A stretch of DNA of 64,000 nucleotides from NCBI GenBank assembly GCA_041937175.2, contig CP166615.1:64001-128000 (forward strand), written 5' to 3'. Below, piece by piece: positions 48,001 to 51,000 of this stretch. Numbering within the stretch: position 1 is the first letter of the stretch; the number at the start of each line of letters is the position of its first letter. The position numbers are program-made. This DNA is from Limnothrix sp. BL-A-16 (GTDB lineage Bacteria; Cyanobacteriota; Cyanobacteriia; CACIAM-69d).

Positions 48001-51000
48001 AAATTGCAATTCAGAAAATTGCGATCCAAGGTAATAACGATCCAGGTTGATCGCCACCGATTGCCCAGTGATCACCCACCAATCATCTGAATCGATCGTC
48101 CGATGGGGCGTGATCGCAAAAAAAAGCTCCCCACCCGAAGGCGGAGAGCTGAGATATCGTCAGGGTGCATCTACCTGTCTTTTCCCTTCGCAGAACCGTA
48201 CGGGTTGTCCGGATAAGCTGACGAAAAAAGTTTTAGCTAGTTTGGTTTTGGACTGTTCTTATTCACTTTCCTCTTGTTCGTTTTCTTCCATTGCCACCCT
48301 ATGGCTGTCTGATTTTTGGCTGTCTGATTGTTCGCCCGCTGTAGCGCCCTTGTCCTATGCCGACTTCCGCGATCGCCAAAGCCGTCTTGGAATTTCACCT
48401 GTCGATTACGCCGTTGGGTGGGGACGATCGGGTGTTGATTCGCACGGAACGAGCGCCCAAGGGAGTGATGTTGGCGGAAGAGCAAGCCATCTGGCCGATT
48501 GGGGAATGGTTGGTGCAGGCGGAACGGTTGATGGCGGATCCGCTGTGGGATCTGTTTCGCACGGAGCCAGCAACCGATGAGCGCCTGGCCAGCCTGGTGG
48601 CCTTGGGAGAACAGCTATACAGCGCGTTATTTCAAGGTTCCATTCGCGATCGATGGATTTCTGCCCAAAGCGTGGCCGATAGCCAAGATGCGGCGCTACA
48701 TTTGCGGTTGGGACTGCGGGGCGATCGATTGCTGCAACTGCCCTGGGAAGCGCTCTATGGCGATGGGCGACTGTTGACCACGGGCACGGATATCACCTTT
48801 TCTCGCTATCGATCGCAGTTTGGCCGCTCCGGTAGCTTTGATGCGCGGCGGTTGACCCTGCGCCGCTCAGATTCATTGCGAATTTTGGTGGCCCTGGCGG
48901 CTCCCGACGACCAAGCGGCCTTAGCCGTGGAGCAAGAGGTGGGGCGGTTGCGCCAAGAGCTGCAACAAACCACCGCCCACATGGAAATCGATGTGCTGGA
49001 TCAGCCCGATCGGGAACAACTCACCCATGCCCTCGAACAGGGGCAATACCATGTGTTTCACTACGCCGGCCACAGCGACCCGGGCCCCGATGGGGGCAGT
49101 TTGCACTTGGTGAATCGGCGCACGGGCCTGGCGGAACCCTTGGCGGGCAACGACTTGGCGGGGCTGTTGGTGAATAACGGCGTGTGGCTGGCTTTTTTGA
49201 ATTCTTGTCGGGGCAGCGACTCGCCGGTTTATCGATCGGATGCGCCGGAAACCGATGCGGACACGTTGGCGGCGGCCCTGATGCGACGCGGTGTGCCGGG
49301 GGTGCTGGCCATGTCGGAGCAAATTCCCGATGATGTGGCGATTACTCTGATGCAGTTGTTTTATCGCAACCTGCGTCCGGACTATTCCCTGGATTTAGCC
49401 ACCAGCCGAATGCGTCAGGGGTTGGTTTCCACCTATGGTTCGGCGCAGTTCTATTGGGCCTTGCCCATTTTGTATTTGCATCCCGACTTTGACGGGTTGC
49501 TATTTGCGGCGGGTGTACCCATCTCGCTGCCGGGGCGATCGCCCTTAATTCCCAACGGTGAGCCACTGCCCACCACTCCGCGATCGCCCGATGAGTCGGG
49601 GTTGCGGCCCCCAATGCCCCTCAAGGGTCTGGCCGATGAGCAGCTAGCGGATGATCAGTGGGCCGATCAAACCATGGCGGTGAATCTGGAGGAGCTAGTG
49701 GCGCGATCGCCCTCGGATGCCGTAGGGAGCGATCGCCCGGACACAAGTCGCAGCCAGCATGGTCCCAATGGCCAAAGTGGCCAGAACGAGCAGGGCAACT
49801 TACCGGCGGCCGCAGCCACGGCGTGGGCGGATCGATCGCGCCCTCGGTTTGACCTGGGATCCGCCGACGCGGACAATGCTGCCCGATCGGGGGCTGCCAA
49901 GGCCGTCACCGTGCCCCAATCTTGGTTAGTGGCTGGAGCCTTGGCCGTGCTGTTGGGGGCGGGTGGGTTGTGGTGGACGGGGGCCGGTCAGGAACCCGAT
50001 CGCAGCCAATGCCCCAACCCACCGCCCCGATCGCCCAATCCCTGAATCCGCCAAACGATTGGAACAGCACCGACACGGAAACGGTGCAGGCGATCGCCCT
50101 GCAAGCCTTGCGCCAAAAGCAACTCCCCACCGCTGTGCAGGCGATCGAAGCCCTGCTGGCCCCCAACCGCAACGCCGCCGCCATTGCCCGGGACGTGCTG
50201 CAAACCCTCCCCAACAGCCAAGACACCGCCGAAACCCTCTTCTTGCGCGGGCGGGTGACCTGGCAACTGGCACGCCAACAGCAACCGGACTATAGCTTCA
50301 ACGATGCCCAACGGTTTTGGGAGCTGGCCATTCAACAGAACCCCAATGATCCGCGCTATCACCTGGCCTTAGGGTTTGCGCATTTTCAGACCCAAACCCT
50401 CGATCGGGCTGAGCAAGCCTTTGCCGAATCCCTGAACCTCACCCAAACCGCTGACGGAGCCATCCTCAGCGATAACCTGGCCCTCACCGCCCAAGCGGGC
50501 CTGGCGCTGGTGGCCCAGGCCCGGGCCCAACAAAACAACGACTCCGCAGCCCTGCAACAGGCCATTCGCTACCGCGATCAGGTGCAAGCCAACGCTGGCA
50601 GCCAGTTTCAGCCCCCCGTTTTGGCGCAGAATTGGCTCTGGACAGAGTTGGCCCTCAGTCAATGGCAGCAACTACTCAGCCGATCGTAATCTTTTGACAT
50701 CTCGCCATTTGCCCCGATCGATCGCCCCCAAGACCGGGGCCAGATCTCCCCTTTGTTGGCCAGAGTTTGGCTCCGTTGGCTTGCGCTGTGCCCCTTTGCC
50801 CCGTTTTCTCGATCCCAACGCTCGATCGCCTTTGCTACGAACCGTAACGTTAATTACGAAAATTCATAAGATCCCAAAGTATTTGCAAAGTTCTAGCTAT
50901 ACCTTTCCTGATATATTTTTTTTGGGCAATTCGGCTACAACTTCGCGAGAGTGCAGCCCGTTGGCGGTATCGTCTCGACCGTCACCTTTGAAGAAACTGC

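Follow-up and report, generated by a model that had tools for sequence, protein, structure and literature searches.

An NsiR1-family small RNA gene with a putative sigma-HetZ-type promoter opposite a probable hetF orthologue in Limnothrix sp. BL-A-16

A small RNA (sRNA) gene of the NsiR1 family, which carries a putative sigma-HetZ-type (DIF1) promoter and faces a probable hetF orthologue, was analysed in Limnothrix sp. BL-A-16, together with its relatives across the cyanobacteria. According to our preferred explanation, to which we assign a probability of roughly 70 %, the sRNA would be expressed from this promoter, would lower hetF by antisense action and would belong to an ancestral, hetZ-linked module. 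The window, i.e. the whole stretch of DNA analysed, comprises 64,000 nucleotides (C1:64001-128000 of the genome), and coordinates refer to the window unless the contig is named.

The small RNA gene and the neighbouring hetF

Searching the window with the Rfam model RF02399 (NsiR1) identified a 59-nt gene on the minus strand at 48118-48176 (42.1 bits, E 6.6e-05, model positions 1-60), with the 5' end taken from the placement of the model. The score lies above the Rfam gathering score of 39 bits, which we used as cut-off for membership and which was exceeded in none of 14 control genomes. Start, end and score are identical to those reported in the genome-wide survey's note for an NsiR1-like copy opposite a hetF-like gene. 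The RNA begins with the conserved 5' segment AGGTAGATGCACCCTGA (48160-48176, minus strand), which has a single exact match within the window; the core of this segment, GTAGATGCACCC, showed no variation across 24 diverse aligned copies (11 fully invariant columns). It is unpaired in the centroid fold of the window sRNA, with an additional 3-bp helix in the minimum-energy fold. The terminator scan detected an intrinsic terminator at 48118-48150 (minus strand), consisting of an 11-bp hairpin (48125-48150) followed by a U run, in an orientation that fits the minus strand only. A folding energy of -21.9 kcal/mol was calculated (z -2.67), which was equalled by 2 of 200 shuffles.

Folding the copies singly resulted in a terminal hairpin for 29/32 copies from the order and 37/46 from named hetF loci, while a MAFFT/RNAalifold consensus of the 24 copies recovered just 4 pairs, with hairpins differing in length. 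The number of copies with an unpaired 5' core (8/32 and 0/46, respectively) is uninformative, as the weak 3-bp helix in the minimum-energy folds defeats this measure. Judged by its sequence, the gene at 48118-48176 is a true member of the NsiR1 family, with its own terminator and the conserved 5' segment.

On the opposite strand, a split gene starts at 48357, which is 181 nt from the 5' end of the sRNA; both the distance and the layout had been described before. The 180 nt that separate the ATG from the 5' end of the sRNA (48177-48356) contain the predicted promoter of the sRNA and probably some of the hetF leader. The N-terminal part of the gene (48357-49985, plus strand; the listed ORF continues out of frame to 50045) consists of a CHAT protease domain (Pfam, 98.6 bits), a linker and a membrane-proximal stretch, and the TPR-like C-terminal part follows in another frame (49985-50689, plus strand; listed ORF 49922-50689). 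For both pieces, NF045509 (HetF) is the top NCBIfam model, with 451 bits (model positions 4-385) for the N-terminal and 140 bits (model positions 594-833, together with weak TPR matches in Pfam) for the C-terminal piece. These scores remain below the equivalog cut-off of 1200 bits, which was reached in family f7 only (22 of 151 genomes), a family with long tandem NsiR1 arrays that we infer to represent the heterocyst-formers; all of the 20 other NsiR1/hetZ genomes stay below this value. In tblastn comparisons with a 784-aa Limnothrix protein (P0001), identity was 94 % for residues 1-550 and 98 % for residues 551-784. The window translation retains both H239 and C284, residues that do not vary among 14 homologues. 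Taken together, these results support the assignment of 48357-50689 as a hetF orthologue.

The frame change in the tblastn alignment maps to 49983-49985 (plus strand), where the window has one C fewer than every related sequence examined; relative to P0001 this is a one-base loss, in line with the frameshift that had been noted earlier. A C is inserted behind 49983 in all three related datasets (X1, X9 and X14), and the frame is intact there as well as in the close relative L035. The open frame comprises 566 aa in this assembly versus 732-842 aa in seven other genomes of the order. Because the two pieces are 94-98 % identical to the intact protein and contain no further stops, the lesion is probably either very recent or an assembly error. 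With the frame interrupted in this assembly, the supposed target hetF may be broken in this strain.

Promoter elements and dispersed copies

Upstream of the sRNA, the hexamer TCCGGA (DIF1, the -35 element of sigma-HetZ promoters) is found at 48208-48213 (minus strand), corresponding to -37..-32 from the model 5' end, and is followed 17 bp later by the -10-type tetramer CGAA (48187-48190, minus strand). The published sigma-HetZ promoter is composed of TCCGGA, in which T-35, G-32 and A-30 are replaceable, a 16-17 bp spacer and the tetramer TGnA, where T-13 may be A and partly G or C (PMC13342950). The arrangement in the window fits this definition, which supports its classification as a promoter of this type. 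It resembles the sigma-HetZ promoters of patS, patX, hetR and other genes in Anabaena PCC 7120, which likewise combine TCCGGA, 16-17 bp and a TGnA-type tetramer about 10 nt before the start (PMC13342950); in contrast to these promoters, the one in the window is a prediction from sequence and has a C at the first position of the tetramer. As a C is only partly tolerated there, according to the same study, this base counts against the sigma-HetZ reading. NsiR1 and hetF are not mentioned in the main text of PMC13342950.

The whole-genome search with RF02399 revealed five NsiR1 copies with 52.0 (copy 1), 42.1 (copy 2, in the window), 34.9, 34.0 and 23.5 bits, of which copies 3-5 are below the cut-off of 39. 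All four scores listed by the genome-wide survey's note were reproduced, and the fifth copy (C1:2350681-2350738, 23.5 bits) was missing from it. The five are dispersed single copies that do not form a tandem array. A 5' sequence shared by the copies, as had been claimed, holds exactly for copies 1 and 2, which both contain the 17-mer given above, and copies 3-5 deviate from it at 2-4 positions.

TCCGGA is located at -36..-31 of copies 1 and 3 and at -39..-34 of copy 5, and is absent upstream of copy 4. The positions for copies 1-3 and the absence from copy 4 agree with the earlier description, as does the total of 760 hexamers in 4.56 Mb. At random positions of the same loci, the hexamer occurred within the matching interval in 0.12-0.47 % of cases, so its presence in four of the five copies is far above chance. 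Exactly 17 bp after TCCGGA, three of these four have a fitting tetramer: CGAA in the window copy, TGAA in copy 3 and AGAA in copy 5. Copy 1 has none at 16-17 bp, and reading the palindromic hexamer from the opposite strand yielded no tetramer in any copy of this genome.

The same elements were found in the relatives. Of the 32 unique copies in the order, a tolerated hexamer is present at -35 in 30, and 26 of these 30 also have nGnA at 16-17 bp. For the named hetF loci, a sigma-HetZ-type -35 element was detected in 43/46 copies and nGnA at this distance in 42/43. In random controls, the hexamer occurred in 2.8-3.3 % of cases, and in 12-17 % of these it was accompanied by the tetramer. The variants TCCTGA and TCCGGG, seen by eye in relatives, are changed only at positions that were described as replaceable (PMC13342950).

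Regulators and distribution across cyanobacteria

The genome encodes HetR (PF03574, 253.7 bits) and HetZ (NF037963, 580.8 bits with an equivalog cut-off of 550; L116:15747-16955 = C1:4165825-4166919), as previously stated. The reported lack of nif genes was also borne out for nifH and nifD, with the best matches in the genome at 45.8 bits for nifD (cut-off 653.55) and 217.5 bits for nifH (cut-off 394.35). We take Limnothrix to be non-heterocystous, as the genus is described. The 414-aa ORF after hetZ has no NCBIfam or Pfam family match and, from its position, is a candidate for patU. No ORF with an RG[ST]GR motif is present within 1.5 kb upstream of hetR, where patX would be expected; the one patX candidate elsewhere in the genome is preceded by TCCGGA at -109, which is not followed by nGnA at 16-17 bp.

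To follow the module through the phylum, 151 phylum-sampled genomes were surveyed, with NsiR1 and hetZ each counted over their cut-offs. NsiR1 is present in 42 of them and hetZ in exactly the same 42; a hetF-type gene accompanies them in 41/42, and was found in 0/109 of the others. Nine of the 42 NsiR1 genomes are without nifD and 20 are outside family f7. Given this distribution, the module is tied neither to heterocysts nor to nitrogenase. The co-occurrence of NsiR1 and hetZ is limited to related lineages, 12 families in all, and common descent may account for it instead of functional coupling.

Among the 80 named hetF loci, 36 have a copy with the exact core, and for 35 of the 36 this copy is on the opposite strand, 161-737 nt before the hetF match. 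Re-testing with RF02399 confirmed the sRNA at 12/12 hetF loci (42.1-71.7 bits), all on the opposite strand. Within the order, NsiR1 exceeds the cut-off in 8/8 genomes, and G007 and G006 each contain an array of three, both as the genome-wide survey's note had it, and a Potamolinea MAG contains an array of nine units. The sRNA is upstream of hetF on the opposite strand in four of the eight genomes. Neither one genus of the order (0/4 genomes) nor a Microcoleus-like family has the sRNA genes next to hetF, which implies that adjacency is dispensable. The closest relatives, L019 and L035, have the same copy at the same place. The sRNA-hetF arrangement is peculiar to neither this genome nor this organism.

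The arrangement in the window resembles NsiR1.1/hetF of Nostoc/Anabaena PCC 7120 (RF02399) in several respects: in both cases, a gene for an RNA of about 60 nt, with the same conserved 5' sequence and a terminator of its own, is preceded by TCCGGA near -35 and lies head to head with hetF, no more than a few hundred nt away, in a genome that encodes HetR and HetZ (PMC9045159, PMC4030482, PMC8406250). The Nostoc RNA depends on HetR, is induced by nitrogen stress and is confined to differentiating cells. In contrast to the array of 12 in Nostoc, a single copy is located at hetF here, and its 42.1 bits compare with 60-78 bits in the f7 arrays. Further differences are the host, which has neither nifH nor nifD, and the frameshifted hetF, which remains under the 1200-bit cut-off. 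An intact, working circuit predating heterocysts had been proposed for this genome. The proposal is supported in part, by NsiR1 family membership, the fit of the promoter, hetF, hetR, hetZ, the missing nifH and nifD and the phyletic pattern, but a working circuit would be putative, and "intact" is in doubt with hetF frameshifted in this assembly.

Proposed mechanism, alternatives and meaning

In our preferred explanation, sigma-HetZ together with the activator HetR would transcribe the sRNA only in cells where sigma-HetZ is active. The hetF mRNA would begin far upstream with a leader crossing the sRNA gene, as for nsiR1.1 in Nostoc/Anabaena PCC 7120, and perfect pairing of the sRNA with this leader would lower HetF synthesis. 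HetF is known to cleave PatU3 and to belong to the divisome, both described for Anabaena (PMC9457339), where sigma-HetZ in turn is inhibited by PatU3. Put together, these published links would form a closed negative loop, in which sigma-HetZ induces NsiR1, NsiR1 reduces HetF, less HetF leaves more PatU and PatU switches sigma-HetZ off. We infer that transcription by sigma-HetZ, antisense overlap, hetF repression and this feedback loop operate here, and the module would be an ancestral feature of hetZ-bearing filamentous cyanobacteria. As the 5' segment is invariant and four extra copies are dispersed over the genome, further targets in trans are implied.

One metatranscriptome contig of a relative with about 95 % identity hints that the hetF leader may extend over the sRNA gene. 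The contig, which is unstranded, does not give true ends and may include DNA carry-over, is unbroken over 48112-48974; its low-coordinate end is 245 nt ahead of the hetF ATG, and depth in the same relative is 0-0.04 at 47900-48093. In Anabaena, hetF transcription starts at -256 with nsiR1.1 behind the start site (PMC8406250). A consensus scan of 47700-48500 detected no sigma-70-type promoter for hetF on either strand. Two candidate sites for pairing in trans at hetF were discarded: the leader outside the sRNA gene (48177-48420) pairs with the first 24 nt at -13.3 kcal/mol, with 0.89 of shuffles at least as good, and the start region (-60..+30) reaches -8.6 kcal/mol, with 0.99 of shuffled seeds at least as good.

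The strongest competitor, which we nevertheless regard as unlikely, assumes a real, HetZ-dependent sRNA that acts solely in trans on targets other than hetF, with the hetF neighbourhood as inherited synteny. It would explain why variation among the 24 diverse copies spares the 5' segment, a constancy that antisense action alone does not need, and why four of the five copies are located next to genes unrelated to hetF (ligA, serA, gatB and pdxJ). The loss of adjacency in 4/8 genomes of the order and in the Microcoleus-like family, as well as the action of the central Nostoc copies in trans on alr3234 (PMC9045159), point in the same direction. However, the divergent placement at 161-737 nt is retained in 35/80 named loci across many genera, a constancy difficult to account for in the absence of selection, and the contig of the relative crosses the sRNA gene into hetF. 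Moreover, no trans target emerged from our searches: genome-wide, three 12-13-mer complements of the 5' segment were found outside the sRNA genes compared to about 4 expected, which is chance level, and pairing with hetZ, hetR and the patU and patX candidates was no better than for shuffles (0.10-0.91 of which were at least as good). One of the three complements is located within an amidase-like ORF.

Still less probable is a decaying module, in which the sRNA copies and the broken hetF are relics without present function. The shortened open frame of hetF, the single copies without an array and the three of five copies under the Rfam cut-off would be compatible with decay, but the hetF pieces are 94-98 % identical to an intact relative, and the extra C is present in all three related datasets. 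In addition, the 5' segment, terminator and promoter motifs are intact, HetZ is over its equivalog cut-off, and L019 and L035 retain the copy in place. The idea of a cis element that acts as DNA or mRNA in the promoter region or leader of hetF, with no separate sRNA made from the conserved sequence, gains something from the position of this sequence in the likely hetF upstream region but is hardly credible, given that copies far from hetF retain the 5' segment, their own promoter motifs and the terminator hairpin, that hairpin and U run suit the minus strand only, that relatives have tandem arrays of complete units and that the RNA is experimentally established in Nostoc (PMC4030482, PMC9045159).

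The earlier reading of a circuit older than heterocysts is less new than the genome-wide survey's note had assumed, because the antiquity of the regulators and the NsiR1 homologues are already in print. That HetR, PatX and HetZ are older than heterocysts has been proposed (PMC11298460, PMC8400943 and papers cited there), and NsiR1 homologues outside the heterocyst-formers were tabulated in 2016 (PMC4734099, Table S3), followed in 2021 by a remark on an NsiR1-like RNA in Limnospira (PMC8400943). This RNA162 of Limnospira indica PCC 8005 is, like the sRNA described here, an NsiR1-like RNA (about 57 nt) in an organism that has hetR and neither forms heterocysts nor fixes nitrogen; it is expressed and regulated, with changes under irradiation, and the available part of its discussion does not cover promoter, hetF synteny or hetZ (PMC8400943). 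Leptolyngbya sp. BL0902 is a comparable non-heterocystous, nif-less filament with hetR, hetZ-patU and a predicted TCCGGA promoter of patX-hetR (PMC11298460). In contrast to that case, which concerns protein-coding genes, the patX candidate of the present genome is away from hetR and its TCCGGA is not followed by a -10 tetramer. Neither NsiR1 nor hetF is mentioned in PMC11298460.

On its own, the window is a modest result, adding one more family member whose partner gene is possibly broken. The wider pattern is that NsiR1 accompanies hetZ in every sampled hetZ genome and hetF in nearly all, and that outside the heterocyst-formers it retains a promoter of the sigma-HetZ type and often its place opposite hetF. 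A broader proposal would make NsiR1 the core ancestral sigma-HetZ output in all hetZ-bearing filamentous cyanobacteria, where lowered HetF would raise PatU, the anti-sigma factor and inhibitor of cell division, and the resulting negative feedback loop would mark single cells of heterocyst-free filaments and transiently arrest their division; we consider this version tentative and rather doubtful, and the earlier idea that the circuit patterns another cell fate is speculation.

The role of hetR, hetZ, patU and hetF in heterocyst-free filaments has been called a mystery (PMC11298460), and in Nostoc NsiR1 is the earliest marker of single-cell differentiation (PMC4030482). Our findings suggest that the label "heterocyst-specific" tells where NsiR1 was studied and not what it is for. 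If the broader proposal holds, a fusion to the nsiR1 promoter would be a ready means of revealing a patterned cell state that is hidden in filaments such as those of Limnothrix, Leptolyngbya and Coleofasciculus.

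The NsiR1 gene, its promoter and its hetF partner

An Rfam search of the window located a small RNA gene of the NsiR1 family (RF02399) at window positions 48118-48176 on the minus strand, scoring 42.1 bits against a gathering score of 39 and matching all 60 model positions. The coordinates that the genome-wide survey's note had assigned to it are right; the offset given there is wrong, and the window is C1:64001-128000 of this genome. The RNA consists of a 5' stretch (AGGUAGAUGCACCCUGA) that stays unpaired in the centroid fold, a G+C-rich hairpin of 11 bp and a run of eight U residues; its fold energy is -21.9 kcal/mol (z -2.67). 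Rfam also assigned three tRNA genes in the window, at 16984-17056 (-), 59299-59380 (+) and 59388-59459 (+), two of which are adjacent.

A 2026 paper describes HetZ as an ECF-type sigma factor whose -35 element, T-35CCGGA-30, is the DIF1 motif, followed after a spacer of 16-17 bp by a -10 element TGnA at -13 to -10 (PMC13342950). According to the same source, substitutions are tolerated at T-35, G-32 and A-30, while T-13 can be exchanged for A and partly for G or C, and T-11 for A and partly for C. Upstream of the window copy, TCCGGA is located at 48208-48213 (-), which is -37 to -32 on the sRNA strand, and the -10-type tetramer CGAA follows 17 bases after the hexamer at 48187-48190 (-).

A genome search identified five NsiR1-like genes with 52.0, 42.1, 34.9, 34.0 and 23.5 bits, numbered here by falling score, with the window gene as copy 2. 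The survey's note had counted four; all of these are present, and the fifth, at 23.5 bits, raises the total. In four of the five copies TCCGGA, which occurs 760 times in 4.56 Mb, starts between -39 and -36; for positions drawn at random from comparable DNA, the hexamer is in the matching interval in 0.1-0.5% of cases. Exactly 17 bp after the hexamer, copies 2, 3 and 5 carry CGAA, TGAA and AGAA; the GCTA of copy 1 (C1:537624-537675 (+)) does not fit the sigma-HetZ pattern. Since the hexamer is palindromic, we read it on both strands and found an nGnA tetramer on the opposite strand in none of the four copies. The pattern was also found in other genomes. Among 32 unique copies from the window's own order, 30 have a tolerated -35 hexamer and 26 of these 30 an nGnA tetramer at 16-17 bp, compared to control values of 3.3% for the hexamer and 17% for nGnA given the hexamer. 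For 46 unique copies from named hetF loci, the numbers are 43 and 42 of 43 (controls: 2.8% and 12%). The variant hexamers noticed by eye (TCCTGA and TCCGGG) are changed at G-32 or A-30 alone.

The copies other than the window copy adjoin ligA, serA, gatB and pdxJ, so that the pairing with hetF is found only in the window copy. Copy 5 (C1:2350681-2350738 (+)) has its hexamer at -39 to -34, and a gene for a HetZ-related paralogue lies about 10 kb away (C1:2360132-2361223 (-)). Copy 4 (C1:877370-877422 (-)), which is also kept in the sister genome G001 (locus L034), lacks TCCGGA and shows by eye a TATACT hexamer at about -12 to -7, and may therefore be read by a housekeeping sigma factor. A degenerate NsiR1-like 5' sequence at about C1:2160760 (+), with part of the core duplicated internally and no obvious terminator, is possibly a decayed copy.

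On the strand opposite to the sRNA gene, an ORF starts 181 nt from the sRNA 5' end (48357-50045 (+); Pfam CHAT, 98.6 bits). Among the NCBIfam models it fits the HetF equivalog NF045509 best, with 451 bits over model positions 4-385, and a second, overlapping ORF (49922-50689 (+)) matches positions 594-833 of this model with 140 bits. Even summed, both pieces stay far under the curated cut-off of 1200 bits. Among 151 sampled genomes of cyanobacteria, this cut-off was reached by one family alone (f7, 22 of 22 genomes) and hetF-type genes of all others scored 451-928 bits; the model therefore appears to be tuned to f7. Aligned to an intact 784-aa protein from Limnothrix sp. PR1529, the pieces show 94% and 98% identity and meet at residues 550/551; the change of frame results from one C missing in a short C run at about 49983-49985. 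The extra C is present in two DNA datasets and one metatranscriptome, whose contigs are 95-99% identical at the locus. In Limnothrix redekei LRLZ20PSL1 the frame stays open over all 784 residues (98% identity), and the open frames in the seven other genomes of the order comprise 732-842 aa, compared to 566 aa here. As these related sequences read through and none is established as the same strain, the break is either very recent or an assembly error. Upstream of hetF lies thiE, which codes for a thiamine phosphate synthase with a ThiD2 domain (46342-47442 (+)), and downstream the gene of the RuBisCO large subunit (51135-52640 (+)); in the repeat-rich stretch that separates thiE from the sRNA gene, two related sequence datasets (X1 and X9) have 10- and 11-nt insertions at 47911 and 48047. 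The window feature is confirmed as a further NsiR1 family member, which has a promoter of the sigma-HetZ type and faces a hetF orthologue; its function in this organism we infer.

Regulators and a possible feedback loop

The genome encodes HetZ (580.8 bits, equivalog cut-off 550), the HetZ-related paralogue (497 bits) and HetR (PF03574, 253.7 bits). Neither nifD (best match 45.8 bits, cut-off 653.55) nor nifH (217.5 bits, cut-off 394.35) was found over cut-off in this genome, which is rated 100% complete, and the sub-threshold matches are probably related chlorophyll-synthesis enzymes. Limnothrix, which NCBI places in the Pseudanabaenales, is not known to form heterocysts. Directly after hetZ, in the position that patU has in other filamentous cyanobacteria, lies a 414-aa ORF (C1:4166825-4168066 (+); L116:16825-18066) for which no NCBIfam or Pfam family matched. 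A patX candidate at C1:3902406 (-) is a 75-aa ORF with a hydrophobic N-terminus, an HRGSGR motif and TCCGGA 109 nt upstream; it has no -10 tetramer at 16-17 bp, and hetR is not adjacent.

The hetF transcript of Anabaena starts at -256, inside nsiR1.2, with nsiR1.1 antisense within the leader (PMC8406250), and NsiR1.1 inhibits hetF translation (PMC9045159). For the present genome, a single hint of such an overlap was obtained: an 878-nt metatranscriptome contig of a relative (about 95% identity) spans 48112-48974 as one piece, beginning 6 nt past the sRNA 3' end and running through the sRNA promoter into hetF. The low-coordinate end of the contig is 245 nt upstream of the ATG, and the depth at 47900-48093 is 0-0.04. 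Because the contig is strandless with unmapped ends and the library may contain DNA, it is consistent with an overlapping hetF leader rather than evidence for one. Neither the hetF start region nor the portion of the leader beyond the sRNA gene paired in trans better with the sRNA than with shuffled seeds, so that action in cis is required if hetF is a target.

The 5' segment is invariant in an alignment of 24 diverse copies, which together with the dispersal of the copies argues for additional trans targets. None was found among hetZ, hetR, the ORF after hetZ and the patX candidate, and genome-wide 12-mer complements of the 5' segment were at chance level. A 12-nt perfect complement at C1:4066301 (-) falls in the 5' coding part of a 338-aa ORF, by eye cell-wall amidase-like; with three such 12-mers seen and about four expected by chance, this ORF is only a lead.

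For Anabaena it is reported that sigma-HetZ reads DIF1 promoters (PMC13342950), that HetF cleaves PatU3 (PMC9457339) and that PatU3 inhibits sigma-HetZ (PMC13342950; PMC12288457). Sigma-HetZ would transcribe NsiR1 from its DIF1 promoter, NsiR1 would repress hetF in cis, and HetF would cleave PatU3, the inhibitor of sigma-HetZ. The three published links combined with NsiR1 repression of hetF would thus form a closed negative loop, a statement that the consulted portions of the cited literature do not make as such.

Synteny with hetF in other genomes

We scanned 80 hetF loci from named species-representative genomes for the invariant core followed by a T run. With up to two mismatches allowed, 39 loci scored; three with mismatched cores were discarded as likely chance hits, leaving 46 exact-core copies in 36 loci. 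In 35 loci the nearest copy is opposite to the hetF strand and precedes the protein match by 161-737 nt; in one (L069) three copies are found some 6 kb downstream. Of the 36 loci, 12 were re-tested with the Rfam model, which confirmed all of them (42.1-71.7 bits), every match being on the opposite strand. Positive loci carry the names Limnothrix, Leptolyngbya, Phormidium, Phormidesmis, Alkalinema, Coleofasciculus, Symploca, Symplocastrum and Potamolinea, together with Myxacorys-like Leptolyngbyaceae and one Anabaena; apart from Anabaena, these genera are not known to form heterocysts. No copy was found within the available flanks of the other 44 loci, including most Microcoleus loci and the Tychonema record, a few being uninformative with 0-320 nt of upstream flank.

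One of the re-tested loci, from a Potamolinea MAG (L068:3578-4770), has nine tandem copies adjoining hetF, which score 58.9-62.2 bits, are spaced by about 142 nt and all carry TCCGGA at -35. The family with the highest HetF scores is therefore not the only one to have long arrays. In family f3 (6.7-8.4 Mb genomes), NsiR1 arrays (G146:C1:1239911-1241196 and G138:C100:7350-8631) lie 11-29 kb from a short hetF-type gene of about 590 aa, and most named Microcoleus hetF loci likewise lack a copy within 5 kb. The claim that NsiR1 exceeds the cut-off in 8 of 8 genomes of the window's own order was borne out by Rfam; it adjoins hetF in four of them, comprising all of two genera (g1 and g3) and 0 of 4 genomes of the third (g2).

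Co-occurrence of NsiR1, hetZ and hetF

According to a 2015 review, NsiR1 exists in Anabaena and in no fewer than 19 further cyanobacteria that likewise differentiate heterocysts (PMC6596454, legend of Fig. 3), and a 2014 paper described tandem copies near hetF in all heterocystous genomes (PMC4030482). In Table S3 of a 2016 paper, NsiR1 has BLASTn homologues in 38 of 89 genomes, and 27 of these 38 are heterocystous (PMC4734099, row 202 of supplementary file 6). The other eleven are thus not, and six of them, by cell counting in the printed row, read as Trichodesmium IMS101, Arthrospira 8005, Oscillatoria 7112, 6506 and 6304 and Microcoleus FGP-2. The consulted part of its main text, section 15 included, does not discuss these homologues. 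Further reports concern an expressed NsiR1-like 57-nt RNA in Limnospira indica, linked to hetR-patS (2021; PMC8400943), and a nif-less Leptolyngbya that carries hetR and hetZ-patU and for which a DIF1 promoter is predicted upstream of patX-hetR (2024; PMC11298460); NsiR1 and hetF are not mentioned in the latter. In the consulted portions of the NsiR1 literature, we did not find hetF synteny, promoter conservation or hetZ coupling described outside heterocyst-formers; the primary NsiR1 papers may say more.

In a phylum survey of 151 genomes drawn evenly, this one included (requested completeness at least 90%), NsiR1 scored over cut-off in 42 genomes and HetZ in the identical 42, with neither in the remaining 109. 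A hetF-type gene (E <=1e-80) was detected in 41 genomes, all inside this set; the sole miss is G116, where 5 of 11 candidates were scored. The 42 genomes span 12 families, with 22 in f7. This family has long tandem arrays and is alone in reaching the HetF cut-off; all 22 of its genomes have nifD, often in interrupted form, and its members are presumably the heterocyst-formers. Since related genomes do not count as independent cases and 12 families are a small number, shared descent alone could account for the coupling. At E 1e-100, nifD is absent from nine of the 42 (G000, the genome studied here, G054, G063, G069, G090, G100, G116, G138 and G146). What the survey does show is that NsiR1 also occurs outside the heterocyst-formers and outside the nitrogen-fixers. 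The triad of NsiR1, hetZ and hetF reaches well past the heterocyst-formers.
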